DNA of 42,114 nt from Candidatus Woesearchaeota archaeon (GTDB lineage: Archaea; Nanobdellota; Nanobdellia; Pacearchaeales; GW2011-AR1): NCBI GenBank assembly GCA_964354195.1, contig CAYGYN010000076.1, forward strand, positions 1 through 42,114, read 5' to 3'. Numbering within the stretch: position 1 is the first letter of the stretch; every line of letters begins with the position of its first letter. Below are positions 10,876 through 34,598 of the stretch, in pieces. The translations under genes and the position numbers were made by a program. The notes under the pieces were generated by a model, which saw nothing but the letters and a program-made list of their open reading frames with translations, did no database searches and was not told where the DNA came from.

Positions 10876-10877
10876 TT

Positions 10878-11846: not shown

Positions 11847-11852
11847 TTTGTT

Positions 11853-12641: not shown

Positions 12642-12682
12642 CTTATTTTTGCTGTTTTATAGTATTTTAATTATTTCTATAG

Positions 12683-13882: not shown

Positions 13883-13883
13883 T

Positions 13884-14897
13884 TTAATGGAAAATTCCTT
13901 CTCTGAATATTATGAAGCCAATTGCAATTATTATTGCCTGAAATGCCCAAATCAGATAGACAACGCGCTTTTCTGTTGGTTTTATGCTGAGTTTCTTGAG
14001 AATTAGAATTGAGAGATGCGTCAAGCCATAAACTTTATCGTATAATAAGCCAAGTGAGCCGTCTTTCTGGGGCTTGCCAAATGAATATTTCACAAGCTTT
14101 CCGCGGGCTTTAAGAAAAACCTCAATAATGAATGGTATAAAAAAGAAAACAGCAATTTTTTCAAAGTTGCCGAGGATTGCTATTATTGCAATCATTGAGC
14201 CTATAGCATATGTCAGGACATCTCCTGGGAAAACTTTTGCGGGGGTGAAATTATAGAACAGGAATGCAAGAAGAGCAACAACCATACATAAGCCAATTAT
14301 TGCCAACCAGGAGTTTCCTGTTAAAAATGCAACTAGAGAGAGTGCGGAGAGAATTATTGCACCCATGCCTGCTTCCAAGCCATTAAAGCCTGCAAGGAAA
14401 TTGAAAGTTGTTGTTGCGCCGACAATGCCTAACGGAATCAATATTAATGGATAGAACAAACCAAAATCAAAACTGCCTATGCCTGGAAGAGACATTGTAT
14501 GCCTTCCTGCATTTATAGCCATGAGAGGTATAGAAGCAATTATCATCATAACAAGCCTTGTTCTTTTTGACACGCCCCCATGCTGCCAGCCAAGCAAATC
14601 ATCAATGAAACCAATGCCTCCTGCCAAGAGAACTACAGAAGAGAGAGAGATTATCTCAATAAGATGCGAGTTATCTTGAAGGACAAATGTTCTATAGGCC
14701 ACAAAGATGAACAAGGAGATGATAAATGCTGTTAGGACAACAATACCTCCTGAGCCTGCCACTTTTTCATTAGTTCGCTTATTCATGTCTTTCCACATTA
14801 AGCCTATCTGTTTTGCCTTCTTTATCCAGAGAGGCATGAAGAGCAAGACTATGAAAAAGCTTGCCAAAACCGGAATTGTTAATGTTAAGTCTGTCAT
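13884..14897 (-). CDS. aglH: UDP-GlcNAc:dolichyl-phosphate GlcNAc-1-phosphate transferase (MraY/WecA/Alg7 superfamily)
   Basis: Polytopic membrane protein with GFIDDLLG (DD motif) and NFLAGFNGLEAGMG (the NxxNxxDGxxGL-type motif). It has an ATGA overlap with aglB. Confidence 0.8.
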   Translation of the reverse strand: MTDLTLTIPVLASFFIVLLFMPLWIKKAKQIGLMWKDMNKRTNEKVAGSGGIVVLTAFIISLFIFVAYRTFVLQDNSHLIEIISLSSVVLLAGGIGFIDDLLGWQHGGVSKRTRLVMMIIASIPLMAINAGRHTMSLPGIGSFDFGLFYPLILIPLGIVGATTTFNFLAGFNGLEAGMGAIILSALSLVAFLTGNSWLAIIGLCMVVALLAFLFYNFTPAKVFPGDVLTYAIGSMIAIIAILGNFEKIAVFFFIPFIIEVFLKARGKLVKYSFGKPQKDGSLGLLYDKVYGLTHLSILILKKLSIKPTEKRVVYLIWAFQAIIIAIGFIIFREGIFH

Positions 14898-17776
14898 TGT
14901 CCTGCTATAGATAACTTGGGATCAGGATAAGGAATCTGAAGGTATTGGGGATTTGCCGTGATATTTTTAGGATAATTTATCTCCCAGATTCTTATCGGAC
15001 CCCTAAAACCACTATAATAAACAAAATCAGATTTTGTGACATTGTTCTCTTTCAGTTGTGCAACTACAAAATCATCCTCACTATGAACAAGCTTGAAATA
15101 ACTGTCATTCTCATTATATAAGTATAATCTTGCAAGCTGGGCTCTAACAGTTCTGTCTGAGAGATACATCAAAACCCCATCTTTATCTATTGAAATGCCG
15201 CCGCTCTGAGTCTGCCCAACATAAGGCATCAAGAATATGCCTACCTCCAAGCCAGAGCCAAAGTCTTTGAATTTCTGAGCCTCTGCATCGTAAGCATACC
15301 TCAAAGGCAGCCTGACTTGCTTGCCCTGATTGATGAAGACACCGATAGGATTTGTTGTCATATCTCCTGATTCATTTCTCTCGATAATTATTCCTATAAT
15401 TCCAGATTGCCCTTCCTTAGGTATGAATACTTTTGTGCCATTATTGTTATAGATAATATCGCCGTCAAGAGGGAATCCTCCTGAATAAACAAAGATAGTT
15501 AAATTCTTTGTTTCCTGTGTTTGCTTTGTGTCTTTCACGAAAGTGTTGAACCAGCTGAACCTGTCATAATTCTCATCAGAACCTATTGAAGAGAATGCAG
15601 AATACTTCCCTATATCTGTTGAATCTATCAGGAAGTGGGTTGTATTGTGCGTATATAAGAACTCAAGAGCCTCTGCATCGTTTGTGCCTGTCAGCGCATA
15701 TCTTCCCATGAGATGGTCCCAATAAGGTATTGAGTTTCCTCCATCAAGAACAGTTGCTCTTTCCCCTATTGATTGCAGCCAATAACCATAATCCCACCAA
15801 TGCCCAAAAACAGCATTTTCTGGAGTCGAGGTTCTTACCCAAGCCATTGCTTTCTGCCATTGCTGATTGTATGCTGAAGGAGCATAGCCTCTGGCTGTTG
15901 ATTCTGCTCCAAGATAGAATTGGTATCCTGCAAAAACCGTTGAGAGCAAAACGAGAATAACCAAACTCCATGCGATTACCTTTATAGTACCATCTTTTAC
16001 CTTCTTGACATCTGATAGTGAGGAAACAACAAAATAACCAATTATAATTGATGCTGGAGGAACTAACATCATTGTCAATCTTACAGCGCCCCTGGCTGCT
16101 ACAATGCATAGGAAGAAGAATGAGAATATCATCAAGAGCCCAAACTCTATCTCATTTAACTTATCAAGTTCGCCTGCTTTATTGTATTTGTGATAATAAT
16201 ATCCGAAACTACCCAATAATGCAATAAATCCAAGCCCGTAAACAAACAAGCTCTGCATATTTGTGCCGTTCATTGCACTATCGGGGGAATACCTGCTAAA
16301 GATTATGCAAATCAGGAAGAGCAGATAACCAAGAGTTACTATTATCCTCTCTTTCTTTTGGAAGACTCTGGACATCTTCCAGAATAGATAGACAGAACCT
16401 ATGAAGAAGAGCCAGAATGTTAGTGGAATGTTCCCGATTGTTGGTCCGAAACTTGATGCCCATTCACTGAAATATGGCTGTTTATTCTCCGCAACAGTAA
16501 CTCCAAGCCTGTCTGTAATTGGCGTGATAAGGTGCCCTTTTATATCCTCAGCTGCTCCCAAGAGAAAATGAGGTCCAAATAACAAAGTGACCGCTATGGT
16601 GCCAAGAAGAATTGCAACAATAATAGAAACAACAGGCTCAGGCAGCTTCTTTATTTTTTCATGCTCAAAATACCTCTTTAGGCTTGTCTTGAAAATCAAG
16701 AGATGGACGATTAATATGCCAAGAACTGCGAAAGAGATTGCTGTTGAAGGAGATTCCATCCAGCCAATCAGGGAATATCTTTGGGTGAAAGGCATAGTGA
16801 AAATAATTGCTGAAGCAAGCCAGAGAGCATATGTATAAACCTTGTTCAAGTCTGTCTGGTTAAGAAGGAATGCTAAGAATACTGCCAAGCCTATTGTTAT
16901 GAATATAAAAATATAACCTCCCCAGACAAGAGCCATGAGCGCTGTTGCAGCGCCTGCCAAAATGCCAAAGATTACTCTTGAATATAATTTCTCAGACTTC
17001 CATGAGCAGAGGAAGAAATAGAATGCAATGAACAAGAAAACAAAGCCAGTTGATTCTTTTTCAGGGATTCCGGCTATTGTTCTTGGAATGAATGCAGGTA
17101 TTACTGAAAGGAAGAACGAAGCGATAAGTGCTGCTATGCTTGCATTCTTATTTCCAAGAGATTCAATAAATATCTTCCTTACAAGAAGGAAGAATGCAAT
17201 GACTGTAAAACCAAACAGCACTGCAGGATAAATTGCTGCTGATTGCTCAACTGATGTGGAACCAAAATGAATCGCGATATTGTGGAACCAGGCAATCATA
17301 TAAGAAAGGAGATTAAGCTCGTGGGAGGTATCAAAGCCAAGAGGAACATATCTCATTGCATCGTGCACTATCAAAGTCCCATGGGCGACTATATATTTAG
17401 CCCAGCGCAGGAACAAGAAAGGATCTAAGTCCGGACCAAGAGTCCAGCCGCCTGTGGTTATATCTCTCAAGCCAGGAAGATTAAGGGTTCTTATGTAAAC
17501 TGCAACCCATGTCACCCAGGCGGCAAGAGGATAGAATGAAAAACTTGATTTGTTAAAATAAACTAAGAGGGCAGATAATGCAGAAAAAATGAATAGCATA
17601 AACCAGATTCCCGGGCTGAAGAAGCTGATTAGAGGGCCAACACCTATCTTTACAAGCCCGCTGAAGACAATAGAAACTATTGAGATTATCAGGAAAGTTG
17701 AGAGCAACTTGTCCTGCTTAAGGAAGCTTAGGAATTTTTCTTTCCTCTCCTCAAGAATTTCGTTCTCGTTTTCCAT
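14894..17776 (-). CDS. aglB: archaeal oligosaccharyltransferase AglB (STT3 family)
   Basis: 960 aa. An N-terminal polytopic domain is followed by a soluble C-terminal domain, and the catalytic WWDYGYW motif is present. Confidence 0.92.
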   Translation of the reverse strand: MENENEILEERKEKFLSFLKQDKLLSTFLIISIVSIVFSGLVKIGVGPLISFFSPGIWFMLFIFSALSALLVYFNKSSFSFYPLAAWVTWVAVYIRTLNLPGLRDITTGGWTLGPDLDPFLFLRWAKYIVAHGTLIVHDAMRYVPLGFDTSHELNLLSYMIAWFHNIAIHFGSTSVEQSAAIYPAVLFGFTVIAFFLLVRKIFIESLGNKNASIAALIASFFLSVIPAFIPRTIAGIPEKESTGFVFLFIAFYFFLCSWKSEKLYSRVIFGILAGAATALMALVWGGYIFIFITIGLAVFLAFLLNQTDLNKVYTYALWLASAIIFTMPFTQRYSLIGWMESPSTAISFAVLGILIVHLLIFKTSLKRYFEHEKIKKLPEPVVSIIVAILLGTIAVTLLFGPHFLLGAAEDIKGHLITPITDRLGVTVAENKQPYFSEWASSFGPTIGNIPLTFWLFFIGSVYLFWKMSRVFQKKERIIVTLGYLLFLICIIFSRYSPDSAMNGTNMQSLFVYGLGFIALLGSFGYYYHKYNKAGELDKLNEIEFGLLMIFSFFFLCIVAARGAVRLTMMLVPPASIIIGYFVVSSLSDVKKVKDGTIKVIAWSLVILVLLSTVFAGYQFYLGAESTARGYAPSAYNQQWQKAMAWVRTSTPENAVFGHWWDYGYWLQSIGERATVLDGGNSIPYWDHLMGRYALTGTNDAEALEFLYTHNTTHFLIDSTDIGKYSAFSSIGSDENYDRFSWFNTFVKDTKQTQETKNLTIFVYSGGFPLDGDIIYNNNGTKVFIPKEGQSGIIGIIIERNESGDMTTNPIGVFINQGKQVRLPLRYAYDAEAQKFKDFGSGLEVGIFLMPYVGQTQSGGISIDKDGVLMYLSDRTVRAQLARLYLYNENDSYFKLVHSEDDFVVAQLKENNVTKSDFVYYSGFRGPIRIWEINYPKNITANPQYLQIPYPDPKLSIAGQ

Positions 17777-20504: not shown

Positions 20505-20846
20505 TCAGGAAGTGAATAGACTAAGAATCTGGTCTTTGAACAAAAGAGTAACAATTGCTCCGGCGATAATCAATAGAATAAGAATAATCGCTATTATAAG
20601 AAGCAATTTCATTTTTGGAGAGGCGGCTGGCTTTGCTGCTTTAACTTCTTGGGGTGCTTCTGAAATTTGTGTTGTCTTAGGAAGGGGCTGTATTAAACTT
20701 GAGGAAACCGGTCTTGAGATTGAGGCAGCTGCTTCATGGACTTCTGCAGGATTGTAGCCTGCATTCAAGAAGCTCTGGACTGCAGAGTCCAATGTAAAAC
20801 CTCTTTCCACTGAGATTTTCAAGCCAGATAAGATTTCTTCATTCAT
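20505..20846 (-). CDS. small tail-anchored membrane protein (helical N-domain, P/S/A linker, C-terminal TM)
   Basis: The C-terminal segment LLLIIAIILILLIIAGAIVTLL is the only hydrophobic helix. It has an ATGA overlap with RNase J. The N-terminal GFTLDSAVQSFLNAGYNPAEV looks vaguely UBA-like. Confidence 0.5.
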   Translation of the reverse strand: MNEEILSGLKISVERGFTLDSAVQSFLNAGYNPAEVHEAAASISRPVSSSLIQPLPKTTQISEAPQEVKAAKPAASPKMKLLLIIAIILILLIIAGAIVTLLFKDQILSLFTS

Positions 20847-22593: not shown

Positions 22594-22601
22594 TTTAATT
22601 A
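22594..22601 (+). promoter_or_regulatory. TATA-like box for the pilin-like operon
   Basis: TTTAATTA centred about 26 nt upstream of the ATG at 22623. Confidence 0.4.
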
Positions 22602-22622
22602 GATATTTTTTCTTTATTGGAT

Positions 22623-23117
22623 ATGCTAAAAGAGGGAAAGAAGGCGCAGATACAGATATCATTCGGGATGATTTTCTCCATAATAATCATAATTGCCACG
22701 GTTGCTGTGGCTTTTTATGTAATAAACTACTTCCTGAAAATGAATGATTGCACCAAAGCGGGCTCGTTTTATGAATCGCTAAAAAACGAGGTTGAGAAGG
22801 CATATAATGGGGACATAACACAAAAAATATTCTCAAAGGCTGTTCCTTCTGGGGTAAAGAGTGTCTGCTTCGGCAATATGACCCAAGATTATACGAAGAC
22901 AGATGTAGAACAGCACGATTATATAACAAAATATGACATTAAGAACAATGTCCTGCTCTATCCTCCGGGAAAGGCATGCAATAATGAGCTTGCGTCATTC
23001 AATCTTGTGCATGCGACAACAAGCGGGTTCTTCTGCGTTCCTGTAAAATCAGGCGCGATAAGCGTGAAGCTAACAAAGGGCAGCTTTGATATTTTGGTAA
23101 AATTAAGCAAGCCATAG
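22623..23117 (+). CDS. type IV pilin-like protein with class III signal peptide (P1)
   Basis: N-terminus MLKEGKKA|QIQISFGMIFSIIIIIATVAVAF: a basic stretch, small residue, Q at +1, then a ~20 aa hydrophobic helix. The globular part has 4 Cys. Confidence 0.6.
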   Translation: MLKEGKKAQIQISFGMIFSIIIIIATVAVAFYVINYFLKMNDCTKAGSFYESLKNEVEKAYNGDITQKIFSKAVPSGVKSVCFGNMTQDYTKTDVEQHDYITKYDIKNNVLLYPPGKACNNELASFNLVHATTSGFFCVPVKSGAISVKLTKGSFDILVKLSKP

Positions 23118-23124
23118 GAACAAT

Positions 23125-24081
23125 ATGAATAGAAAAGGAATTGAGTTCAGTTTTGGTTGGATATTTGCGCTGATTATAGGGGCAGCAATAATCTTTCTTG
23201 CAGTATATGCTGCTGTGAAACTTGTTGGCACAGAAAGAACAGTGCAGTCGGCGGAACTCTCAAAGCAGCTTGATGTGATTTTGACACCAATTGAGACAGG
23301 TTATGAGAGCGGTAAGTCTGTCACACCACTTGAGTTCCCGAGCGAGACTCGAATTTATAACTATTGCACTCTCGAAGGCAATTTTGGGGCGCAGAAGATA
23401 ATTGTTGATGCAAGCTCAGGAATTGGCGGCAAATGGCAGAATGTGAATCTTTTAACTCCGTCTGTATCTTACAACAAATATGTCTTTTCAGCTTCTATAG
23501 TCCAAGGTAGAAAAGTTATGGTTTTCTCAAAACCATTTAACATGCCTTTCAAGGTGGCTAATCTTCTTTTTCTTTATGCAGACAAATACTGCTTTGTACA
23601 CACCCCGAGCGAGATAGAAAAAGAAGTAACCTCGCAAAGGATGCAGAACATAAACATCACAGATGATACTCCAGGAAGCTGCCCGAAGCAAAGCATAAGG
23701 GTTTGTTTTGCGGAAGATGTGGGCTGCAATATAACTGTGAATACAAACGAGAAAAGTGTTGAGAAAGGAAACAGTGTTGTCTATTATGAGGGCGGGCTTG
23801 TCTATGGAGCCATTTTTTCTTCACCTGACTTGTATGAATGCCAGGTTGCCAGATTAATGAAAAGGGCGTCTGAACTTGCGATGTTATATAACGCAAAGAG
23901 CGAGAACATTGCTGCTTCAACAGGGGGCTGCAGCTCGGAACTGCAGGGCTATCTGCAGAGTTTCGCAACTTTAACTGGGGGAACAAACAGCTCCATGGCG
24001 CTAAGGGAAATATTCTTCATGGCTGAGGAGATAAAAGCAAAGAATAGCGGGATAACTAAATGCAAGCTATGGGAGGAATGA
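23125..24081 (+). CDS. type IV pilin-like protein with class III signal peptide, large member (P2)
   Basis: MNRKG|IEFSFGWIFALIIGAAIIFLAVYAA, followed by a ~290 aa Cys-containing domain. Confidence 0.6.
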   Translation: MNRKGIEFSFGWIFALIIGAAIIFLAVYAAVKLVGTERTVQSAELSKQLDVILTPIETGYESGKSVTPLEFPSETRIYNYCTLEGNFGAQKIIVDASSGIGGKWQNVNLLTPSVSYNKYVFSASIVQGRKVMVFSKPFNMPFKVANLLFLYADKYCFVHTPSEIEKEVTSQRMQNINITDDTPGSCPKQSIRVCFAEDVGCNITVNTNEKSVEKGNSVVYYEGGLVYGAIFSSPDLYECQVARLMKRASELAMLYNAKSENIAASTGGCSSELQGYLQSFATLTGGTNSSMALREIFFMAEEIKAKNSGITKCKLWEE

Positions 24082-24581
24082 TGGCAAGAAAAGCGCAGAT
24101 GAAGGTGCAGGAAATGGCTTTTGTTCTAGTGGCTATAGTGATATTCTTCATCATGGTAACATTGGTTTATCTTGCCATAAGGATGTCTACCTTAAAGGAA
24201 GATGTGACAAGCCAAAGGGAAGAAGCTGCAAAAGAGCTTGCGCGGAAACTCGCAGACATACCTGAGTTCTCATGGGCTGCTTCTGGCTGCTCAGGCTGCC
24301 TTGACATGGATAAATTGCTTGTGCTGAAAGACAGGGCTGCCTACAAGAATTTCTGGGATATTGATTATCTAATGATAGAAAATGTCTACCCTAACAAAAC
24401 AGACGTGGAGTGCACAAAAGCCAATTACCCTGATTGCAGAACAATAACCATTGTCAATAACACTAATTATTTCGGGAGCCCTGCAAGCGCATTTGTTGCG
24501 CTTTGCAGGCTTGAATCGAGTGAAGGAGGGTATGCCAAATGCGAGCTTGGAAAAATACACGCAGGGAGCAAGGCAATATGA
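24078..24581 (+). CDS. type IV pilin-like protein with class III signal peptide (P3)
   Basis: MMARKA|QMKVQEMAFVLVAIVIFFIMVTLVYLAI. It has an ATGA overlap with P2. The longer ORF start at 24060 lies inside P2. Confidence 0.6.
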   Translation: MMARKAQMKVQEMAFVLVAIVIFFIMVTLVYLAIRMSTLKEDVTSQREEAAKELARKLADIPEFSWAASGCSGCLDMDKLLVLKDRAAYKNFWDIDYLMIENVYPNKTDVECTKANYPDCRTITIVNNTNYFGSPASAFVALCRLESSEGGYAKCELGKIHAGSKAI

Positions 24582-25084
24582 TAAGAAGGGCAAGGAGAGG
24601 GCAGGAAGAAATAGTGGGTTTTGTGCTTATAGTTGTGCTTGTGGCTGTTATTTTCCTTGTTTTCTTAGGACTAGCAATAAGAAGGGAAGCACCTGCAACA
24701 ACAAAAGACAGCAGGGATGTTTTCCAGTTCCTTGAGAGCTTGTCCGAGTATACTACGGACTGCGCAATAAGCTCTGTGCCTGCATATTCCAACATTAGGG
24801 GATTGATAAAAGAATGCTACGACAAGGCACAATGCACTTCAGGGAAGAGTGCATGCCAAGCATTAAACCGAACTCTAAGAGAGGCTATTGATGCAAGCTG
24901 GAAAGTTGGCAAAGACCGTCCTGTAAAAGGATATTCACTTAATTCCACTTATTACTCAGAAGCAAGAACAGAGCAGGTTATGCTAATTAATGCGGGAAAT
25001 TGCACAGGAACAATTATAGGCTCAGAAAAAGCATTTAGCGTGACTCCGGGAACAATTTCAACAACATTAAAGATATGCTACTAA
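24578..25084 (+). CDS. type IV pilin-like protein with class III signal peptide (P4)
   Basis: MIRRARRG|QEEIVGFVLIVVLVAVIFLVFLGLAI. It has an ATGA overlap with P3. The domain is Cys-containing. Confidence 0.6.
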   Translation: MIRRARRGQEEIVGFVLIVVLVAVIFLVFLGLAIRREAPATTKDSRDVFQFLESLSEYTTDCAISSVPAYSNIRGLIKECYDKAQCTSGKSACQALNRTLREAIDASWKVGKDRPVKGYSLNSTYYSEARTEQVMLINAGNCTGTIIGSEKAFSVTPGTISTTLKICY

Positions 25085-25440
25085 ATCTTGATGTTGATGT
25101 GGATAGAATTAACAACAAGGACAGGCCTTAACCTTTCCCTTTTACCTGTTTTCTCAGCAATAAGGTCAATAAAGCCAAATCTCTCAAGCAGTTTTATATC
25201 GTCATTGACTGACTTGAAATCTCTTTTCAGAATCTTTGCCAATTCATAGATTGAGGAAGGTTTTTTTATCTTTAAGGTGTGCAAAATCTTGGCTTTTTCA
25301 TTGCTTAGCAATTTTCTAAGAGCAATTATGCCTTCAAAATCATAGCTTGCCTGCTCGCCAGTCATTCTCCTGAAGAAAGTTGAGAAAGCTCCACTTTCAT
25401 CGACGATATCTATATCCCTTGTTTTTTCCTGTTTGGCCAT
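25081..25440 (-). CDS. winged-helix DNA-binding protein (COG4190-like predicted transcriptional regulator)
   Basis: KILHTLKIKKPSSIYELAKILKRDFKSVNDDIKLLERFGFIDL is a helix-turn-helix plus wing pattern. It is transcribed divergently from the S-layer gene. Confidence 0.5.
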   Translation of the reverse strand: MAKQEKTRDIDIVDESGAFSTFFRRMTGEQASYDFEGIIALRKLLSNEKAKILHTLKIKKPSSIYELAKILKRDFKSVNDDIKLLERFGFIDLIAEKTGKRERLRPVLVVNSIHINIKI

Positions 25441-25593
25441 GTATAAATATGGGGTAATATTTACCTTATATATTTTAATGATATAGAGTATATATATGTT
25501 TTGGATTAATATATATTGTTAAAAATCCCATATATAGGAAAATTTGAATATATTTAAGAGCTTGGAAGTGCAGTTCTAAACTTTAGTGATAAC

Positions 25594-25620
25594 AAAAGCT
25601 TTATAAAGGAACTTTAGTAT
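25594..25620 (+). promoter_or_regulatory. promoter-like element 1 (BRE/TATA) upstream of the S-layer gene
   Basis: AAAAGCTTTATAAAGGAACTTTAGTAT is a near-duplicate of the element at 25658-25687. Confidence 0.5.
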
Positions 25621-25657
25621 GCAGGCATCACTACCTCGATTAAGCGAAAAATGAGGG

Positions 25658-25687
25658 GAAAGCTTTTTAAAGGAAGTTTGATTTAGA
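25658..25687 (+). promoter_or_regulatory. promoter-like element 2 (BRE/TATA) upstream of the S-layer gene
   Basis: GAAAGCTTTTTAAAGGAAGTTTGATTTAG shares the core AAAGCTTT(A/T)TAAAGGAA(C/G)TTT with element 1, about 64 nt downstream of it. Confidence 0.5.
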
Positions 25688-25713
25688 CAATTACTCTGAT
25701 AAGCTCAGGGTGT

Positions 25714-25752
25714 ATATCAAGGGTTACATTCTAAACGAATTGCCTTTGATAT
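25714..25752 (+). other. predicted 10-bp stem-loop in the S-layer mRNA leader
   Basis: ATATCAAGGG (25714-25723) pairs with CCTTTGATAT (25743-25752), with one G-U pair and a 19-nt loop. Confidence 0.35.
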
Positions 25753-25838
25753 GTTCGGCAGGTTGCCTACAAAACAACCTCCTCTATGAGGGGCGAAAGC
25801 TGCCAATCACACAGAGCTGAAAGGGGGTTTAATAAAAA

Positions 25839-28241
25839 GTGAAATTTAATTTCAAAAAGATTGCATCTGTAATAGCAAGCACAGTTATGCTCAGCTCAAC
25901 AGTGGCACTCGCCGCTGCAGCCAACTACCCATCACCATTCGTACAGAACGGTGTTGCTGATGTTGCTGTGGTCTATGGCGCAAATGCGGCTCAAACCGAC
26001 TTGGTCGCTGCAACTGACATAACAGCTAGCTTAAATTCAGGAATATTAACACAGGTTACAACAGGTGGAGTATCACAAGCCACAGGTGGAGACGCGGTCA
26101 AACTTGCAAGAACAAGTGACTTAGTCGACCTTGGAAATGATGTAAACGTAGTATTTAGTAAGTCAGTCACTAAAGATGACTTAAAGACCTTACTTGCTGA
26201 CGGAACATACTTGAACGACGCAAACAGCGAGTACAAGTATGAACAAAAAATCAACCTTGGTAGCCTTAACATGAGCTTCTTCGCAGATAGTGATTATAAG
26301 AATAAAGAGCCCACAGTCGGCTTCAAGTTAGCTGACGGTGTTAGAGTAATGAACTATACCCTTGACTTTACTACTAATGCTGAATCATCAGTTTCCACAG
26401 CAGGAGACTTGACAGACTTAGAAACCACTGACATATCAATATTAGGAAAGGACTATTATATCTTAGACGCAAAGAATGCAACAGCAGCAGGTACATACCT
26501 TGGAACATTCACATTGCTTGATTCTGCAAACTCAGTTGTTGTCACAGAAGGCGAGAGCCAGACAGTAACTGTAGGAGGCAAGCCATACACAATATCAGTC
26601 GCTTATATCGCTGACAATAAAGTCAAGCTTGATGTAAACGGCGAGATGACAAACGTATTGACAGCTACTACAACTACAACATTCAAGTTGGAGGATGGCA
26701 CATATGTAGGCATCAAAGAGATATTGTACAACTCCAAAGAGAGTGGAGTAAGCAAGGTAGAGATGAGCATAGGTTCTGGAAAATTGGAAATTTCCTCAGG
26801 AAATGACGTTGAACTCAACGACGACTCTATATCTGGCCTTAAGGGCTATATATTCAGAGGAAGCCTATCGGGAGGAAAGGAGACAATGGACAAGATAGTC
26901 CTTACATGGGATACTGACGACACAATGTTCGTAAGTCCGACTTCAGACTTAGTAATGCCAGGATTTAATGCAGTCAAGCTTTCAATGGGAGACTTTATAG
27001 TCCCTAAGAAGGAATTGGCTGAAGTGAATTATGATGGCGACGACAGTATATCATTAGTAGTGCCTATCAAAGATGGGACTGCTGATTTCAATATATTGTA
27101 TGCTAACTCTAACGGCGCGTTCATAGGACTTGGAAAATCTGTTGATGAACAATTGACTACAGGAGCTACATCATTGCTCGTGAACCTGACTTCAGGCGAC
27201 CGAGACAAGTGGTTTGTTGCTTCATGGAACTCAACCAAAGATGCTGAGTCCTACTTGTTATCTGCAAGCATAGAAGAGAAAGATGGCAAGAATAGAACAA
27301 CAATCAAGAATGAAGTGACTGGAAATAATGTTTGCGAGGATAAAGCTAATGGCGATGTCTGTCAGTTTGGCAGCGTAAGCCTTAACATTATCGGCGTCAA
27401 CAAAACAGGAAGCAACAAGTGGGTTACAATGACAGGAGGTTCGGGAGTATCCTTTGATAAAGTATACACCACGGACGGCTTGAAGATTGCATTGCCACTA
27501 ATGTCAACTATTAATGATACTGTTGTTGATGGAGAAATCTTCCTCAACAGCACCGCCGGAGGTATTGGAGGTGCTCCTGGACACAATAATAATACATATT
27601 ATTTGTTCATGACAGAAATGGATAAGGATGACAATGTTGCAAAGGGAATAAAGTTCAATGCTACATTAGGACACGATAGCGATGGAAATGTACATGTCAC
27701 AACATTTGACACTGGACAAACCAAGCTTGATGTACCTGGTTCAAGTGATGACCAAGTAAGCATGGTCGTATCAGACTTAGCTACAAAGGTCACAAGAACA
27801 GTCAGCTCAGACAAAGGAAAACTTCAGGTTGAATACCATGGAGGAGAATCCTATGCTGACGTATTCCTTACTTCATTGGAGGCGCAAGTCTCAACAAGCG
27901 GAAGCACTGCTAAAGTATTGCCTATAAAAGACTCAGAAGCAGCATCAGTAACAGCTAATAACTTGGTTGTTGTTGGTGGAAGCTGTATTAACAGCGTTGC
28001 TGCTGATTTACTTGGAGGCGCTCTTTGCGGAGCTGACTTTGAGGCTAAGACAGGTGTTGGAGCTGGAGCATTCCTTATCGAGACATTCTCTCGCACAGGA
28101 GGCGGAGTTGCAACACTAGTTGCTGGTTACAATGCAGAGGACACAACAAGTGCAGCCAAGTATTTGACTACCAAAGTTGTTGACACATCTGTCGGCAGCG
28201 TGGTAACAAAGAAGTCTGTTACTTTTGAAGCCCTAGCTTAA
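25839..28241 (+). CDS. S-layer protein (Methanococcales-type S_layer_N / S_layer_C architecture)
   Basis: GTG start 10 nt after the Shine-Dalgarno-like AGGGGGT (25822-25828), with an in-frame TAA 2 codons upstream. Signal peptide MKFNFKKIASVIASTVMLSSTVALAAAA. N-domain NYPSPFVQNGVADVAVVYGANAAQTDLVAATDI. C-terminal NLVVVGGSCINSVAADLLGG. About 10 N-x-S/T sequons. Confidence 0.8.
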   Translation: MKFNFKKIASVIASTVMLSSTVALAAAANYPSPFVQNGVADVAVVYGANAAQTDLVAATDITASLNSGILTQVTTGGVSQATGGDAVKLARTSDLVDLGNDVNVVFSKSVTKDDLKTLLADGTYLNDANSEYKYEQKINLGSLNMSFFADSDYKNKEPTVGFKLADGVRVMNYTLDFTTNAESSVSTAGDLTDLETTDISILGKDYYILDAKNATAAGTYLGTFTLLDSANSVVVTEGESQTVTVGGKPYTISVAYIADNKVKLDVNGEMTNVLTATTTTTFKLEDGTYVGIKEILYNSKESGVSKVEMSIGSGKLEISSGNDVELNDDSISGLKGYIFRGSLSGGKETMDKIVLTWDTDDTMFVSPTSDLVMPGFNAVKLSMGDFIVPKKELAEVNYDGDDSISLVVPIKDGTADFNILYANSNGAFIGLGKSVDEQLTTGATSLLVNLTSGDRDKWFVASWNSTKDAESYLLSASIEEKDGKNRTTIKNEVTGNNVCEDKANGDVCQFGSVSLNIIGVNKTGSNKWVTMTGGSGVSFDKVYTTDGLKIALPLMSTINDTVVDGEIFLNSTAGGIGGAPGHNNNTYYLFMTEMDKDDNVAKGIKFNATLGHDSDGNVHVTTFDTGQTKLDVPGSSDDQVSMVVSDLATKVTRTVSSDKGKLQVEYHGGESYADVFLTSLEAQVSTSGSTAKVLPIKDSEAASVTANNLVVVGGSCINSVAADLLGGALCGADFEAKTGVGAGAFLIETFSRTGGGVATLVAGYNAEDTTSAAKYLTTKVVDTSVGSVVTKKSVTFEALA

Positions 28242-28363: not shown

Positions 28364-28918
28364 ATGAATAACCTTAGAAAGATAGAAAGCAGAGAGGAAA
28401 TGGAAAGAAAGAGAAAAAGGAATACTCTATTCTTGAGCATTATCATGATATCAATACTTGTGTTCAGCACAGCAGGCTATTTTGCATTTAAGGACGATAG
28501 TGACACGCAGAGCAATACAGAGGGAGTGCAGAACATGGGAGGAGACTCATGGGTCTTCAAATATGGCGAGCAGACAGTAAAACTTAGCAATTCCCCGGAA
28601 AGCGTGAAGAACATAACTGTCTTCGTCAACGAGGACATTTCTTCATATTCAGGCAAGATAGTTTATGTTGCCTCTGAGAATGATGCGGGCTTGTATGAAA
28701 TTTATTCTGCGCTGTCAGGATATGCTGGGCGCGTCCAGCCGGCATGCTATGGAAAGTGCACTAAGGACTTGCCAGAGAAAGAGTGCAATGAAACCATGAT
28801 TGTGGTAAAGCCTGCAAATGCAACAGATATGGTTTATCAAAAAGACAGCTGTGTGTTCATAGAAGGGGATTTAAAGGCTGTTGATGCTTTCCTCTATAAG
28901 ATATATGGGATAATATAA
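28364..28918 (+). CDS. N-terminally membrane-anchored extracytoplasmic protein, 4 Cys, unknown function
   Basis: A basic N-terminus and a single TM (LFLSIIMISILVFSTAGYFAF). A TATA-like ATTTTTAAAG lies about 25 nt upstream. Confidence 0.55.
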   Translation: MNNLRKIESREEMERKRKRNTLFLSIIMISILVFSTAGYFAFKDDSDTQSNTEGVQNMGGDSWVFKYGEQTVKLSNSPESVKNITVFVNEDISSYSGKIVYVASENDAGLYEIYSALSGYAGRVQPACYGKCTKDLPEKECNETMIVVKPANATDMVYQKDSCVFIEGDLKAVDAFLYKIYGII

Positions 28919-28919
28919 A

Positions 28920-29588
28920 ATGGCTAAAAGAATAAAACGAGACAAAGAAACACATATTGATAAGGGAATAAAGAGATATCTCCCCCTTATTATCTCTCTT
29001 GCTGCCTTGGCAGTTATTTTCCTCGTTCTCTATTACTTCTTCCAGGGAATGGGCAAGGTTGAATACCAAGGATTAACCTTTATCAAGCAGAAGTTTGGAA
29101 GCATACAGGTTTACACTTACAGTTACCTTGTGAAGAGCCCTGATGGGAAAATTCTTCAGAATACACTTTACCTCAGACTAGACCCAAGCAAGAACAAGGT
29201 GCCTGTTGAGGGAGAGATAATTTACAGAGAAGGCATGCTAACTTACATCAGCATTAATGCCACGGAACTAAGTAAATGCAATGACAGCATGATTTCTGTT
29301 GCAAATCTGGTTAATTTCCTTTCGAATAACAATATCAAAGTAAAGGGAGGAACTCCTGACAAGCAGGAAGCGCAGAATAACAACCAGACATATGTCAACT
29401 GCAATAATTATCCCCTGAATACAGTCATACTTCTAACTGAGGGAGATGAGACAAAGATAACAAAGCAGAATAATTGCTACATTGTAAGCGCAAACAACTG
29501 CGAGATTCTGCCGGCTGTGGAGAAGCTTATAGTCCAGTCAATTCTTGATGCAAGAGTATACAACTCAGGAAAAGAGGCGAAAGCCTGA
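28920..29588 (+). CDS. N-terminally membrane-anchored extracytoplasmic protein, 4 Cys, possible paralogue of the preceding gene
   Basis: A single TM (LPLIISLAALAVIFLVLYYFF). The start is 1 nt after the upstream stop. The C-terminal C-N..T-[VM]-I-[LV]...C-[YV]-[IF]...AV-[ED] pattern is shared with the 184-aa neighbour. Confidence 0.55.
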   Translation: MAKRIKRDKETHIDKGIKRYLPLIISLAALAVIFLVLYYFFQGMGKVEYQGLTFIKQKFGSIQVYTYSYLVKSPDGKILQNTLYLRLDPSKNKVPVEGEIIYREGMLTYISINATELSKCNDSMISVANLVNFLSNNNIKVKGGTPDKQEAQNNNQTYVNCNNYPLNTVILLTEGDETKITKQNNCYIVSANNCEILPAVEKLIVQSILDARVYNSGKEAKA

Positions 29589-30020
29589 GTAAGTTATCAG
29601 AGTTACGATTATTCCTGCAAGAACTGCCCCGAGGGCAATATAAGCAAATGATTTCTTCTTATCCATACCAAGGGCCCAGGAGCCCAGGGCAGCTGTATAA
29701 ACCCCTGTGAATGGCAGAGGTATTGCAACAAATATCATCAAGCCGATGTAGCCATATTTCTCAATTTGTCTGTGAATCTTGTGCCTTGCTCTTTCCAAGA
29801 CCTTATGGAATAATTTGTTGTACCATTGCATGTGGAGGAACAGATTGTTCAAATATTCCAGAAAAATAAATATTAACGGGACAATGAGTATATTTGCCAG
29901 AGTGCAAATCAAGAAAGCAGTTAAAGGATTTAATCCATAGGCAATTGCAAGAGGAATTCCCCCCCTTAGCTCAGAGATTGGCAGCATGCTAAGCAAAATT
30001 ATCTCAAGAAGATTATTCAT
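29565..30020 (-). CDS. small membrane protein of the COG2426 / 'putative small multi-drug export' family
   Basis: MLPISELRGGIPLAIAYGLNP is the signature N-terminus of that family as I recall it. It has 4 TM segments and an ATGA overlap with the sortase-like gene. Confidence 0.55.
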   Translation of the reverse strand: MNNLLEIILLSMLPISELRGGIPLAIAYGLNPLTAFLICTLANILIVPLIFIFLEYLNNLFLHMQWYNKLFHKVLERARHKIHRQIEKYGYIGLMIFVAIPLPFTGVYTAALGSWALGMDKKKSFAYIALGAVLAGIIVTLITYSGFRLFS

Positions 30021-30547
30021 TGTTTGCCTCTCTTTATGCTATGAAAGATATTTTTTAAATCTGTGTATCCGGGAATTGCCTTTATCTCGAAGAGATAAAC
30101 ATTTGCGAACCAGATAGCTACAACAAGAACAGTTGAACCGAAATTCCAGACAAGCTTATGGGTGAAATCAAAATATTGGTCTCCTGTTATGAACAATGCT
30201 GCAAAAACAACAATGCGCAGGATGTTAAGAACTAAGAGGGAGAGAATAGTGAAACCAAGGCTTTTTGCCCTTATTTTTGGCTTCAAGGGGGTTGCAAGGT
30301 TCAAGATTAAGAGCAGATAATATGCAGAGCCTGCAATGCAGGCAGGAATAAGCTGGATTGAATAGCTGTTGAATATAAGGCATTCATTGGATAAGGTTAT
30401 TCCATGATAGAAAATGCTGAGAATCCAGTAAACAGGATAAACTGTAAGTGGTGTGAAGATAAAGTAAAAGATAAGCATGCCAGGCAGGGCTATCAGGACA
30501 AGAAATAGGTAACGCAGGAATAATTTCAACGTATCTTCAAGGTTCAT
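30017..30547 (-). CDS. minimal exosortase/archaeosortase family protein (176 aa)
   Basis: Polytopic membrane protein with the Cys...Arg...His catalytic pattern at family-typical spacing: IPACIAGSAYY, then ~43 aa, then LNILRIVVF, then ~22 aa, then FTHKLVWNFGS. Confidence 0.65.
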   Translation of the reverse strand: MNLEDTLKLFLRYLFLVLIALPGMLIFYFIFTPLTVYPVYWILSIFYHGITLSNECLIFNSYSIQLIPACIAGSAYYLLLILNLATPLKPKIRAKSLGFTILSLLVLNILRIVVFAALFITGDQYFDFTHKLVWNFGSTVLVVAIWFANVYLFEIKAIPGYTDLKNIFHSIKRGKQ

Positions 30548-30587: not shown

Positions 30588-32540
30588 CTATCTCTTCAGA
30601 ATTCTGACAGCAAGAACAATTATCAGGATAATCAAGATTAAGTTTATGCCGCCGATTATCCAAAGCAAGGTCTTGTTTCCAGTGAACAGGCCTGAAAGTG
30701 AAGATGTCCAGCTTGAGCCTTCTTCTATAGTTACTGCAACTGACTTTGAGTCTATCTTGTCGCCTGCTTTTGTCTCGATTGTGAAGGTTTTCTCTCCTGA
30801 AACGCCAGCATCAACTGCGAATGTGAATTGGACTTCTCTGCTCTCGCTTCCATTCAACGTCAATATCCTGTCTGAAATTGACTTCAATGTTGCCCATGAT
30901 TCAAAGTCTTTTGCATCAACAACAAAGGTATTCTTCCCTATGGCAAGGTTCTTTATCAAAGCTGTAATGACAAGTTCCTGTCCTGCTTTTGCTTCACTAT
31001 CCAATGAGGCAGTTATTTCTGTAAGGGGCTTGCTTGTAGCATTGGTTGTTCCGCCTATTCCGCCAGCAACTGTTATCCTTGCTTCCCATGTTGTGTCTGA
31101 ATGGTCTGTGTACAAGTCAGATGATTTCTTGTAATCAAAGTATGTGTCTAATTTCAGGGTATAAACTCCATTTTCTGCAGTGTAAGGCACAACAAATGAG
31201 AAGTCAACAGGCTCTGAATCTCCGCTGTCAAGAGAGAAGGATGAAGACTCGATATTCAAGCCAAGCTTTGAATTGTAGAGTGTTACTTTTACCTTTGTCT
31301 GGTCCTCTGTTCCTATGTTGTAGGCTCTTGTGCTGACATGAACAGTATCGCCTGTCTGCACAACAAGCTCTGGAGAGACAACTATCTCATCTTCATTCAA
31401 AACAATGTCCTTTGATTTCTTTGTTATGGAAATTGAGTCTACCGAACTATCTGGAACATCTGTGGCTTCATAGGAATTGCAATATGAGCTTTCTTTGCCG
31501 CTTACATATGCCTTGACATAAAGAGAGTATCTTCCATCTGAGTCTTCAACATCTACAGGCACTTGGAATTCGAACTTGACTGTCTCTGAATCTCCATCGT
31601 CTATTGAAACTTCCTGCTCAAGATAATTATCACCATCTAATTCTATGAAATCCTTATCTTCTGTATCATAGAGTGCAAGCCTGACAACAAAATCCTTGTC
31701 CTTGCCAATATCATTTCCGACATCCACTTCGATTTCAACATTGTCAAGAGGCTTCCATTCCCATTCATTATCTGTATCAGAAGAAACATCTGATATATCT
31801 TCTATAGTGACTTTTGTGGCATTGATATTCCCATTCTTGCAATAAACGCCCATGATTGTAAATCCCTGTGTGTCATTTGCAATAGGATAGTCCAAATCTT
31901 TTGCAAGCACAGTTATGCTGTGGTCGCCCAACTCCAAATCATTGATATTCTCAAGAGAATTTATATTGACAGTTGTTGAGCTGCCGGCGCTAAGCGCAAA
32001 GTTATTCTTTGAGAATGAGACGTTAATTCCTCCTGAATATGTAAGGTTTATGTGGTTGAGAGCAGTATTTCCTGTATTTGTGACTGTCATGGTGGCATTC
32101 TGTTGTGAATTCAAATCTGTTGGGTCCGAGATATCAAGTGAATAGGTATTATTTATTGGAACAGAGAATGATATTACCTCGTTTGAGCCTGTGCCACTTG
32201 GGTCAGCAGTTATTGTGAATGTAAGTGTGCCTGACTGATGGGCAGTGAAAGAAACTGTTTCGGTAAATGTCTTTGTTTCATTTGCAACAAGAGAAGTATC
32301 TGTTGGCAGGGTTATTGTTGCGCTTCCTGATGTCACAGAAGAGGTCCATGTGATTGGAGAAGCGTCAAGTCCTGTGTTTGTAATATTGAACACGACTGAG
32401 AATGAACCTGCATCATGCAAAACGCTTGCTGGCTCAGAAACTACTGCTGAAGAAAGACTTGCAGCGCTTGCAAAGCCTGCTATAAGAAATACTGACAGAA
32501 TTGCAACCAAAAATAATGGGAAATGTTTTGATGTTTTCAT
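30588..32540 (-). CDS. secreted surface glycoprotein with repeated CARDB/Ig-like beta-sandwich modules and a C-terminal TM sorting signal
   Basis: Signal peptide MKTSKHFPLFLVAILSVFLIAGFASA. Recurrent '..V.V.N.G...' modules (FSVVFNITNTG, MTVTNTGNTAL, RAYNIGTED, LIKNLAIGKNT). Many N-x-S/T sequons. The C-terminus is SSLSGLFTGNKT-LLWIIGGINLILIILIIVLAV-RILKR. Confidence 0.65.
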   Translation of the reverse strand: MKTSKHFPLFLVAILSVFLIAGFASAASLSSAVVSEPASVLHDAGSFSVVFNITNTGLDASPITWTSSVTSGSATITLPTDTSLVANETKTFTETVSFTAHQSGTLTFTITADPSGTGSNEVISFSVPINNTYSLDISDPTDLNSQQNATMTVTNTGNTALNHINLTYSGGINVSFSKNNFALSAGSSTTVNINSLENINDLELGDHSITVLAKDLDYPIANDTQGFTIMGVYCKNGNINATKVTIEDISDVSSDTDNEWEWKPLDNVEIEVDVGNDIGKDKDFVVRLALYDTEDKDFIELDGDNYLEQEVSIDDGDSETVKFEFQVPVDVEDSDGRYSLYVKAYVSGKESSYCNSYEATDVPDSSVDSISITKKSKDIVLNEDEIVVSPELVVQTGDTVHVSTRAYNIGTEDQTKVKVTLYNSKLGLNIESSSFSLDSGDSEPVDFSFVVPYTAENGVYTLKLDTYFDYKKSSDLYTDHSDTTWEARITVAGGIGGTTNATSKPLTEITASLDSEAKAGQELVITALIKNLAIGKNTFVVDAKDFESWATLKSISDRILTLNGSESREVQFTFAVDAGVSGEKTFTIETKAGDKIDSKSVAVTIEEGSSWTSSLSGLFTGNKTLLWIIGGINLILIILIIVLAVRILKR

Positions 32541-34524: not shown

Positions 34525-34598
34525 TGGGGATGCCCGGATTTGAACCGGGGTTGCGAAGTCCCAAACCTCGAGTGTTAACCAGGCTGCACTACATCCCC
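34525..34598 (-). tRNA. tRNA-Pro (anticodon UGG), no intron, CCA not encoded
   Basis: The minus-strand sequence GGGGATGTAGTGCAGCCTGGTTAACACTCGAGGTTTGGGACTTCGCAACCCCGGTTCAAATCCGGGCATCCCCA folds by hand into a cloverleaf. It has a 7-bp acceptor stem, a 5-bp anticodon stem with loop UUUGGGA, and a CCCGG/CCGGG T-stem with a TTCAAAT loop. Confidence 0.88.

Follow-up and report, generated by a model that had tools for sequence, protein, structure and literature searches.

Our analysis identifies a tetrad of genes, G1 to G4, whose products share a prepilin-type N-terminus and which stay together beside an S-layer gene in Woese- and Pacearchaeota. We propose, with a probability of roughly 45%, that these genes encode four distinct type IV pilin-like (class III signal) proteins, expressed from one coupled operon and forming an S-layer-associated pilus- or pseudopilus-like module. 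The genes lie in a stretch of 42,114 nucleotides (hereafter the window), whose DPANN affiliation, suspected in the initial annotation, proved to be Pacearchaeota-like.

The ORF list and the raw sequence confirmed the layout described previously, with four collinear ORFs of 164, 318, 167 and 168 aa at positions 22623–25084, all on the forward strand, the last three chained by ATGA. G1 (22623..23117) encodes 164 aa from its ATG, with an alternative TTG start at 22617, and is separated by a gap of 7 nt from G2 (23125..24081; 318 aa). True ATGA overlaps join G2 to G3 (24078..24581; 167 aa), which has a GGAGG directly 5′ of its ATG, and G3 to G4 (24578..25084; 168 aa). Gene junctions are also tight or overlapping across related loci. 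An AT-rich, TATA-like element read from the sequence (TTTAATTAGATATTTTTT, 22594..22611, forward strand) is found about 25 nt 5′ of the G1 ATG and is a possible candidate for the promoter of a leaderless G1–G4 transcript. Several Cys had been reported in each globular part, and we count 4, 8, 6 and 6 in the window proteins; the number is even in 86–96% of family members. C82 and C138 are invariant among the 4 Cys of G1, G2 has 8 conserved Cys, 5 of the 6 Cys of G3 are invariant in the family, and G4 has 6 conserved Cys.

In all four proteins, a short basic leader and K/R-G/A precede a hydrophobic helix. In the window, these N-termini read MLKEGKKA↓QIQISFGMIF in G1, with the predicted cut (arrow) before Q9, MNRKG↓IEFSFGWIF in G2, where I occupies +1, MMARKA↓QMKVQEMAFVLV in G3, with the cut predicted before Q7, and MIRRARRG↓QEEIVGFVLIV in G4, with the cut predicted before Q9. 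Among 75–82 orthologues per family, we found only G, A or S at −1, and K or R at −2/−3. Gln occupies +1 in 63/72 G1 orthologues and in all those of G3 (80/80) and G4 (78/78). The G2 family lacks this Gln and has F, L or I in its place, with E or Q at +2. K/R-K/R-G/A is near-invariant in all four families and Gln +1 in three of them, as summarized by the consensus sequences K[RK][GA]Q..[LI]SFGMIFSII (G1), K[KR][GA][FLI][EQ][FI]SF.W.FAIIVG (G2), K[KR][AG]Q[ML]KIQQMAF (G3) and K[KR][GA]QEE[IM]VGF (G4).

We then searched 85 related loci with a strict pattern, which required [KR][GA]Q among residues 1–40 and, after it, a hydrophobic window of 17 residues. It matched 217 of 2120 ORFs, of which 186 belong to the G1–G4 families and 29 to a further pilin-like family, G0; only 2 matches fell among the about 1900 other ORFs. 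In the window, a looser pattern retrieved the four genes and two false positives among 84 ORFs. D1 and D2, two anchored neighbours in the same gene island, have long variable tails and no G/A-Q motif; judged by their sequences, they are ordinary signal anchors and provide an internal contrast to G1–G4. The archaeal prepilin architecture first attributed to these N-termini is thus upheld by a motif that is near-invariant in orthologues and absent from D1 and D2, and the comparison supports the prediction that the G1–G4 N-termini behave as class III (prepilin) signals rather than as ordinary anchors. The polar residues straight after the predicted cut (QEE, QMKIQQ) are unusual compared with characterised archaeal pilins and count against this reading. 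With such polar residues at +2 to +4, G1–G4 might not pass the FlaFind rule.

No Pfam or NCBIfam family was matched above threshold by any of G1–G4, either with the window proteins or with family members. The pilin families checked were Class_IIIsignal/DUF361, Pilin_N (PF07790), N_methyl, TIGR04205 and ComG*. With the window proteins, no pilin or class III signal family was found at E ≤ 1 except TIGR04205 with G1 (E 0.079). Among family members, 9/63 of G1 match TIGR04205 weakly (best E 4.7e-4, all far under the 65-bit cut-off), 6/116 of G4 match Pilin_N (best E 0.032, under the cut-off) and only 2/116 of G4 match the NCBIfam ComGD model, far under its cut-off. Some G4 homologues carry the JGI labels ComGC or PilX. 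Profile–profile comparison aligned the four families only over their first 37–54 residues, with the cleavage site in register, at probabilities of 54–97% (G1/G3 being the weak pair, at 54%), and showed that the globular parts are unrelated to each other. A conserved N-terminus joined to unrelated heads is the pattern found in pilins.

The AlphaFold model of G2 (pLDDT 94.2) has a 48-residue N-terminal helix (10–57), a beta-rich domain and a C-terminal helical bundle; that of G4 (pLDDT 91.4) has a helix at 7–35 and a small alpha/beta part, with a four-stranded sheet at the C-terminus. The position of the long G2 helix, just before the beta domain, would fit the pilin-like reading. Foldseek comparison of both models with the PDB returned no pilin, pseudopilin or archaellin: G2 gave only noise (best E 0.07, TM ≤ 0.19), and a match of G4 to ribosomal uS3 (TM about 0.3) was rejected as not meaningful. 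Profile searches of PDB sequences with G2 and G4 gave no relevant match either. With no family above threshold and no PDB match for the G2 and G4 models, the globular parts do lack recognisable similarity, as had been remarked; these heads are small and Cys-rich, and the two models have no known fold. A profile search of 1.84 billion representatives showed that the G2 family comprises 1903 representatives at 50% identity. Members of this family are also present in 347 GTDB species genomes, whereas the exact G2 sequence of the window was absent from public contigs. Named homologues are all archaeal.

The four-gene order, which the initial annotation had suggested comparing among relatives, was collinear in 75/75 related Woese-/Pacearchaeota loci. 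G2 is accompanied by G1 in 77/80 loci, by G3 in 80/80 and by G4 in 77/77. The prepilin-like reading and the co-conservation of the tetrad are therefore both sustained.

In the window, RNase P Pop5 and RNase J border one side of the tetrad; its neighbours on the opposite side are a regulator and the S-layer gene. The regulator is an HVO_A0114-family winged-helix protein (25081..25440, reverse strand; PF25212, 59 bits), convergent with G4 and divergent from the S-layer gene, and keeps this place and strand in 73/85 loci. The S-layer gene (25839..28241, forward strand) encodes a Methanococcales-type S-layer protein of 800 aa (PF05124 S_layer_C, E 6e-13; 24.7 bits against TIGR01564, just below the 25-bit cut-off), with a Sec signal and no C-terminal membrane anchor. 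It is present in 68/85 loci, and the adjacency of the operon to this gene, noted earlier, was borne out in the window and in every locus with enough sequence. D1 (28364–28918; 184 aa) and D2 (28920–29588; 222 aa) follow on the forward strand; both are anchored N-terminally, have a charged variable tail and match no family, and they occur in 50/85 and 48/85 loci, respectively. The reverse strand then carries a pacearchaeosortase (30017–30547; NF033505, 207 bits, cut-off 80) and a PACE-CTERM putative S-layer protein, its presumed substrate (30588–32540; NF033506, 467 bits, cut-off 110). G1–G4 have no C-terminal sorting signal and are therefore neighbours, not substrates, of the pacearchaeosortase system. 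The term "orphan", originally given to the operon, calls for a qualification: the tetrad belongs, as a fixed element, to a conserved S-layer/archaeosortase island that includes the regulator, the S-layer protein, the two anchored proteins, the pacearchaeosortase and the PACE-CTERM protein. In roughly 30–45 of 85 relatives, the tetrad is preceded by the fifth, canonical pilin-like gene G0 (K[RK]GQVTIFIII); large secreted proteins with weak, sub-threshold Big_13 (Ig-like) matches also precede it there.

To search for type IV pilus machinery, we ran Pfam/NCBIfam scans on the tetrad, on most neighbouring genes and on the large ORFs of the window that span the membrane several times; the remaining ORFs were judged by their N-termini and by synteny with a related locus (L001). 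The 42-kb window contains no prepilin peptidase, T2SSE ATPase or T2SSF platform, and the Walker-A motif is absent from every open frame, so that family scans and motif search agree with the absence reported previously. There is also no ABC transporter near G1–G4. The 'novel secretion system' arCOG01314 (Makarova 2015) was considered and rejected, as the components that mark it, namely a MoxR ATPase, a vWA protein and DUF4350, did not turn up in the window.

In relatives, 88 loci were searched for Walker-A and GxGD motifs and for clusters of multi-pass membrane ORFs. The only machinery gene within ±10 kb of the tetrad in 85 relatives is one PilB-like T2SSE ATPase, in locus L031, directly upstream of G1; no T2SSF-like or peptidase-A24-like multi-pass membrane protein was detected in these flanks. 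This ATPase is closest to CPR/bacterial PilB/GspE (42–48% identity), and its best 120 matches are mostly bacterial/CPR PilB. PilB-like ATPases occur on other genuine DPANN contigs, where they stand alone with no platform gene beside them. In another locus (L086), the ATPase is placed between FKBP and IF5A, a slot that is empty in the window. An alignment of DPANN ATPases was used to collect 80 ATPase-centred metagenome loci, mostly bacterial, and none of them contains G1–G4. Our literature search found nothing specific on pilus machinery in Pace-/Woesearchaeota. A groundwater metagenome study reports type IV pilus components as missing in DPANN genomes (bioRxiv 10.1101/2020.05.14.094862), and another study reports archaeal TFF system 1 from some DPANN (bioRxiv 10.64898/2026.04.22.720090).

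The closest counterparts of the tetrad N-termini are the Epd pilins of Methanococcus maripaludis, together with archaeal TFF system 1 or clade 1. The cleavage sites of EpdA–E read RAQI, KGQV, KGQL or KGQI, and their peptidase EppA requires Gln at +1 (PMC4371748). The sites of G1, G3 and G4 are identical in form (K/R-G/A-Q, with a basic leader and a hydrophobic helix), and in both cases a genome holds several pilin-like genes, some in stand-alone loci. G1–G4 differ in having no detectable sequence relationship with Epd pilins beyond the motif, no significant Pfam match and no QxSxExxxL, in their polar residues after Gln, and in the lack of Gln +1 in G2; moreover, the tetrad locus, without ATPase, platform or peptidase, is fixed beside an S-layer gene. 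The initial statement that no archaeal equivalent had been described was too strong, given the M. maripaludis minor pilins EpdA–D, with their KGQ/RAQ sites and stand-alone loci (PMC4371748; bioRxiv 10.64898/2026.04.22.720090), and the at least 5 minor pilins inferred per clade-1 locus by Makarova et al. (2016; PMC4858521).

The comparison of G1–G4 with bacterial minor-pilin or pseudopilin tetrads is a tentative lead. GspH-I-J-K and FimU-PilV-W-X likewise comprise four different pilin-like subunits encoded consecutively, one of them about 320 aa long, and their tight gene coupling would point to a defined complex. However, they show no similarity to the tetrad in fold (G2 and G4 models) or in sequence, the tetrad lies outside any machinery operon, and its motif is the archaeal K-G/A-Q and not G↓F...E5. 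The analogy drawn in the initial annotation rests on gene number and sizes, and is not supported by the G2 and G4 models, which match no pilin or pseudopilin in the PDB. TIGR04205 (archaeosortase D/PIP-CTERM) also associates a pilin-like N-terminus with an archaeosortase and its C-terminal-sorting substrate encoded nearby, but the sortase here is a pacearchaeosortase, and four families are present rather than one. ArlF binds the S-layer. The ArlF/ArlG (FlaF/FlaG) archaellum stator, with a membrane-retained pilin-like helix and an extracellular domain acting at the S-layer, offers a precedent for pilin-like proteins other than filament subunits; in contrast to this system, no archaellum gene and no Pfam archaellin-family match is found here, and S-layer binding by G1–G4 is putative. 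Class III signals also occur on other proteins that are no classical pilus subunits and whose genes lie apart from those for assembly; G1–G4 differ from these in their small, Cys-rich heads and in having no ABC transporter close by.

In the reading we favour, each protein would be inserted in the membrane, its short basic leader lying on the cytoplasmic side, in line with the observed motif and topology features. A prepilin peptidase encoded elsewhere would cut after G/A, as suggested by motif identity with the Methanococcus EppA/Epd system, leaving a mature +1 Gln in G1, G3 and G4 and a hydrophobic residue in G2. From the translational coupling, together with an N-terminus common to all four proteins, heads that are not related and strict co-conservation, we infer that the N-terminal helices pack into one defined hetero-oligomer, probably 1:1:1:1, from which four disulfide-bonded, glycosylatable globular domains would face outwards. 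The module would be a short structure, pilus-like or pseudopilus-like, that works at the S-layer or through it; it may prime or cap a filament, or may be a stub reaching from the membrane to the S-layer. Any part that it plays in contact with surfaces or hosts is speculative.

Such a module has a serious competitor in a static complex associated with the S-layer. G1–G4 would then stay in the membrane, with the leader cut or not, as a pillar or anchor that tethers or spaces the anchorless S-layer protein, and would need neither ATPase nor filament; we consider this possible, if doubtful. They might in that case resemble SlaB for SlaA, or the S-layer-binding ArlF/ArlG, an analogy that is equally tentative. 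Wherever enough sequence is available, the tetrad is tied genomically to the S-layer gene and not to pilus machinery; the window and the flanks of nearly all relatives lack such machinery. The Sec signal and missing C-terminal anchor of the S-layer protein, the sortase and PACE-CTERM substrate of the same island and the report of missing type IV pilus genes in DPANN (bioRxiv 10.1101/2020.05.14.094862) also favour a static support, and the spread of the family (347 GTDB species, 1903 clusters at 50% identity) is better suited to a core component of the envelope than to an accessory appendage. However, a plain anchor needs no invariant K/R-G/A-Q before its helix, as D1 and D2 illustrate, and the prepilin N-terminus of G0 is fully canonical. 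Lying next to the S-layer gene is, besides, weak functional evidence because reduced DPANN genomes conserve gene order in general. In a further reading, which we hold to be unlikely, G1–G4 would be a pilin-derived heterotetramer cut loose from the type IV motor, a core and near-universal stub or pillar of the Woese-/Pacearchaeota envelope that would anchor or perforate the S-layer and mediate host contact.

The tetrad could also be, as first suggested, a true minor-pilin set, the priming or tip complex of a host-attachment type IV pilus, with other parts of the genome encoding the major pilin, ATPase, platform and peptidase. We judge this quite improbable, in spite of the prepilin-type N-termini, the four unequal subunits with one large member and the example of M. 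maripaludis, where stand-alone pilin loci exist and minor pilins are needed for piliation (PMC4371748; bioRxiv 10.64898/2026.04.22.720090). Reports of archaeal TFF system 1, Aap-like systems and subsystem 4A in some DPANN, and PilB-like ATPases on genuine DPANN contigs, once right beside G1, point the same way. However, the G2 and G4 models resemble neither GspH/I/J/K nor FimU/PilVWX nor any pilin in fold, the window holds no candidate major pilin, the ATPase is adjacent in only 1/85 loci, the FKBP–IF5A slot of L086 is empty in the window, and the DPANN ATPases that were found stand alone without a platform gene. The kinship of the L031 ATPase with CPR/bacterial PilB/GspE (42–48% identity), the ComGC/PilX labels on some G4 homologues and the F/L/I-E/Q of G2 at +1 and +2 could suggest a competence or pseudopilus module acquired from CPR bacteria, in which G1–G4 would be pseudopilins working with a bacterial-type PilB/GspE in DNA or substrate uptake. 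Such an origin is very improbable: the K-G/A-Q sites are of the archaeal EppA type without Glu at +5, named homologues are all archaeal, the ATPase is not co-conserved with the tetrad, and ComGD is matched by only 2/116 G4 members, far under its cut-off. The absence of family or fold matches would finally agree with four unrelated single-pass membrane proteins lying together, their N-terminal likeness arising by chance from the positive-inside rule. This explanation, hardly credible, is already contradicted by synteny and motif statistics: 75/75 loci are collinear, gene junctions overlap, and a motif near-invariant in four families yields 2 off-family matches among about 1900 other ORFs.

Woese- and Pacearchaeota, abundant archaea with tiny cells, have not been cultivated. 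Our analysis defines four large unannotated families with prepilin-type N-termini, travelling together beside an S-layer gene, and shows that combining motif and synteny finds pilin-like genes missed by family models. The tetrad provides concrete candidates for a surface structure of these archaea. If the proteins do act without a pilus motor, this would extend the known uses of prepilin-like proteins; a motor-free heterotetramer would put prepilin-type proteins to a new structural use, with predicted folds that so far have no counterpart in the PDB.

The four pilin-like genes, here called G1 to G4, follow one another on the + strand: G1 at 22623–23117 (164 aa, with an alternative TTG start at 22617), G2 at 23125–24081 (318 aa), G3 at 24078–24581 (167 aa) and G4 at 24578–25084 (168 aa). 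These limits were taken from the ORF list and the raw sequence, and bear out the collinear arrangement proposed in the initial annotation. As it had also stated, the last three genes are chained by true ATGA overlaps (G2/G3 and G3/G4), while 7 nt separate G1 from G2. A TATA-like AT-rich element lies about 25 nt 5' of the G1 ATG, and GGAGG/GGGAG-like sequences are found upstream of G3 and of G4. From this layout, we infer a single operon whose first gene would be leaderless. The G+C content is about 0.40 and uniform over the whole window. The leaders of 5–8 residues end in KKA (G1), RKG (G2), RKA (G3) and RRG (G4), followed by a hydrophobic stretch; the N-termini quoted earlier read identically in the raw sequence. 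Several cysteines per protein had been reported, and we counted 4, 8, 6 and 6 in G1, G2, G3 and G4, respectively, together with 1–3 N-glycosylation sequons in each.

A G2 relative is encoded in 347 species. We aligned each family across 85 related loci from species-representative genomes, and obtained the N-terminal consensus K[RK][GA]Q..[LI]SFGMIFSII for G1, K[KR][GA][FLI][EQ][FI]SF.W.FAIIVG for G2, K[KR][AG]Q[ML]KIQQMAF for G3 and K[KR][GA]QEE[IM]VGF for G4. All aligned sequences have G, A or, in few cases, S just before the predicted cut, which is followed by Gln in 63/72 G1, 80/80 G3 and 78/78 G4 proteins. N-terminal of the K/R pair, neither length nor sequence is conserved. These sites have the same form as those of Methanococcus maripaludis EpdA-E (RAQI/KGQV/KGQL/KGQI), whose peptidase EppA needs Gln at +1 (PMC4371748). 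D1 and D2, two N-anchored proteins encoded after the S-layer gene, have the same topology as G1–G4 but carry long variable charged tails and lack the G/A-Q motif; they illustrate the appearance of a plain signal anchor within the same island. When the 2120 ORFs of the related loci were searched with a strict pattern ([KR][GA]Q followed by a hydrophobic window), 217 matched, of which 186 belong to G1–G4, 29 to G0 (a fifth pilin-like family, seen in relatives only) and 2 to other genes. The prepilin-type assignment made in the initial annotation is upheld by this near-invariance across families, by the lack of the motif in D1 and D2 and by the two off-family matches. At the motif level, the predicted class III signals of G1–G4 are well supported.

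None of the four proteins attains threshold against Pfam or NCBIfam. Scans of the whole G4 family gave sub-threshold matches to Pilin_N (6/116) and ComGD (2/116), and a few G4 homologues bear a ComGC or PilX label from the JGI pipeline. In profile-profile comparison, the families align mutually over their first 37–54 residues only, with the cleavage site in register (probability 54–97%, the weakest pair being G1/G3), and their globular parts are mutually unrelated. The AlphaFold model of G2 is confident (pLDDT 94.2, pTM 0.89) and presents a 48-residue helix (10–57), a beta-rich domain and a C-terminal helical bundle; that of G4 (pLDDT 91.4) has a helix at 7–35, a small alpha/beta part and a four-stranded C-terminal sheet. 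Foldseek returned no meaningful match in the PDB for either model, and profile searches of PDB sequences found nothing, in line with the earlier remark that the heads resemble nothing recognisable. The G2 family counts 1903 representatives at 50% identity (E<=0.001), the best 150 of which are all about 290–370 aa long. G1–G4 therefore share a prepilin-type N-terminus and carry disulfide-rich heads, and since their similarity is limited to the N-terminus and no family matches, nor any fold for G2 and G4, they have a pilin-like layout yet stand outside every described pilin family.

We then counted neighbours in those loci whose contigs leave room. Next to G2, we found G1 in 77/80 loci, G3 in 80/80 and G4 in 77/77, and the four genes are collinear on a single strand in 75/75, which answers the question of gene-order conservation raised by the initial annotation. 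The junctions between them are short or overlapping in all loci. G1–G4 are four distinct, co-conserved and translationally coupled surface proteins. The downstream block is equally fixed, with an opposite-strand regulator, the S-layer gene, D1, D2, the sortase and the PACE-CTERM protein, so that the tetrad holds a constant position in an S-layer/sortase island. The upstream flank varies across relatives. One genome set, including the window, has Pop5 and RNase J there; in 30–45 other related loci an extra module precedes the tetrad (e.g., L003:4607–9521 and L005:1465–9444). It encodes G0 (about 255 aa, canonical prepilin-type N-terminus K[RK]GQVTIFIII), a Sec-secreted, Cys-rich protein of about 600–690 aa and one or two proteins of about 800–900 aa with weak Big_13 Ig-like matches. 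The module is absent from the window and may represent a set of adhesins.

The window is archaeal and of DPANN origin, as previously suggested: it carries the pacearchaeosortase/PACE-CTERM pair, and all named homologues of G2 and G4 come from Pacearchaeota, Woesearchaeota or Nanoarchaeota MAGs. Upstream of the tetrad are RNase J, RNase P Pop5 and an N-glycosylation island that includes AglB. Positions 1–17776 form a large N-glycosylation and envelope-sugar island (AglB/STT3 at 14894–17776) that also encodes a GT4-family transferase, a flippase, a PMT_2-family protein, a UDP-sugar dehydrogenase and a 2-epimerase, and is compatible with the surface proteins encoded farther downstream being heavily glycosylated. 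A 113-aa protein with one C-terminal hydrophobic segment, hence a tail-anchored layout, and no family match (20505–20846, −) is conserved beside RNase J in 20 related loci.

Downstream, a convergent HVO_A0114-family regulator (PF25212) is followed by a Methanococcales-type S-layer protein (PF05124), D1, D2, the sortase and the PACE-CTERM protein; the S-layer gene said to adjoin the operon is thus present, beyond the regulator. The 398-bp divergent intergenic region between the regulator and the S-layer gene (25441–25838) is very AT-rich, with recurrent TATATA-like runs, and probably acts as a strong promoter and operator. D1 (184 aa) and D2 (222 aa), at 28364–29588 (+), have 4 Cys and 3 sequons each, no family annotation and an invariable place directly 3' of the S-layer gene; they are conserved and are further candidate S-layer partners. 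A gene of the small multidrug-export family (29565–30020, −; PF06695, E 1.5e-39), located after D2 and before the sortase, looks like a lineage-specific insertion into the island, since a homologue was detected in only 7/85 related loci. The pacearchaeosortase (30017–30547, −; NF033505, 207 bits, cut-off 80) adjoins its presumed substrate, a PACE-CTERM putative S-layer protein (30588–32540, −; NF033506, 467 bits), and therefore two different S-layer-type proteins are encoded within 7 kb. Farther along are a tRNA-Pro (TGG) at 34525–34598 (−) and an FtsZ gene at 41200–42114 (+) that continues past the right end of the window; as FtsZ occupies this region, the short minus-strand ORFs listed over it are spurious.

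In agreement with the initial annotation, the window holds no prepilin peptidase, T2SSE ATPase or T2SSF platform gene, and no open frame contains a Walker-A motif. Within 10 kb on either side of the tetrad in 85 genomes, the sole machinery gene is one T2SSE ATPase (PF00437, 366 bits) in locus L031 (7489–9318, −), divergent from and adjoining G1; its closest relatives are bacterial/CPR PilB/GspE proteins, along with a small number of DPANN proteins about 600 aa long. None of the multi-pass membrane proteins near the tetrad resembles T2SSF or an A24 peptidase. Other stand-alone PilB/GspE-like ATPases (about 600–636 aa, that of L031 included) occur at L086:10001–11821, L087:5101–6954 and L089:10001–11911. 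In L086 the gene sits between FKBP and IF5A, which are adjacent in the window with no ATPase between them. The nearest relatives of these DPANN proteins are CPR/bacterial PilB (42–48% identity), and on genuine archaeal contigs no platform or peptidase gene accompanies them; they may reflect bacterial-to-DPANN transfer. When metagenomes were scanned for the ATPase, most loci obtained were bacterial and none carried G1–G4. The literature on type IV pilus components in DPANN is split: according to a 2026 survey, some DPANN carry TFF system 1, Aap-like systems and subsystem 4A (bioRxiv 10.64898/2026.04.22.720090), a groundwater study states that the components are missing (bioRxiv 10.1101/2020.05.14.094862), and Makarova et al. 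(2016; PMC4858521) described nanoarchaeal ATPases whose pilins defied identification.

We tentatively favour, with a probability of about 0.45, a pilin module in which a prepilin peptidase encoded elsewhere would cleave G1–G4 at the predicted site, the N-terminal helices would bundle into one hetero-oligomer, and the proteins would form a short pilus-like structure acting at the S-layer or across it. A static, motor-free complex supporting or anchoring the S-layer seems a less likely explanation; its constant association with an S-layer protein that lacks an anchor argues for it, as does the missing machinery, but the invariant cleavage motif speaks against a plain anchor. The initial annotation had instead proposed a possible tip structure, in which the four proteins would prime or cap a true pilus with its major pilin encoded elsewhere. 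Its analogy with bacterial minor-pilin tetrads does not hold beyond gene number and sizes, and since nothing connects G1–G4 to GspH/I/J/K or PilV/W/X, we consider this version improbable. A bacterial-type competence-like module is very improbable, and a chance grouping or resemblance is the least credible explanation.

The closest known system to the tetrad is the EppA/Epd pilin set of Methanococcus, which has the same motif at the cleavage site, comprises several minor pilins and includes pilin loci that stand alone. The tetrad differs from it by the polar residues after the Gln, by its S-layer linkage and by the lack of any sequence or fold relationship. Among G1 members, 9/63 matched TIGR04205 below threshold (best E 4.7e-4). 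This family of class III signal proteins is tied to archaeosortase D/PIP-CTERM and is a precedent for such proteins beside an archaeosortase system. ArlF and ArlG offer a precedent of another kind, as pilin-like proteins that work at the S-layer and are not filament subunits. No description of the G1–G4 tetrad was found in the literature; what has been reported on 'S-layer-like proteins' (PMC6393860) may overlap with its island. While orphan pilin-like genes are common in archaea, and the mechanism given above is a proposed one, G1–G4 are a solid and widespread set of uncharacterised pilin-like families in an important uncultivated group.
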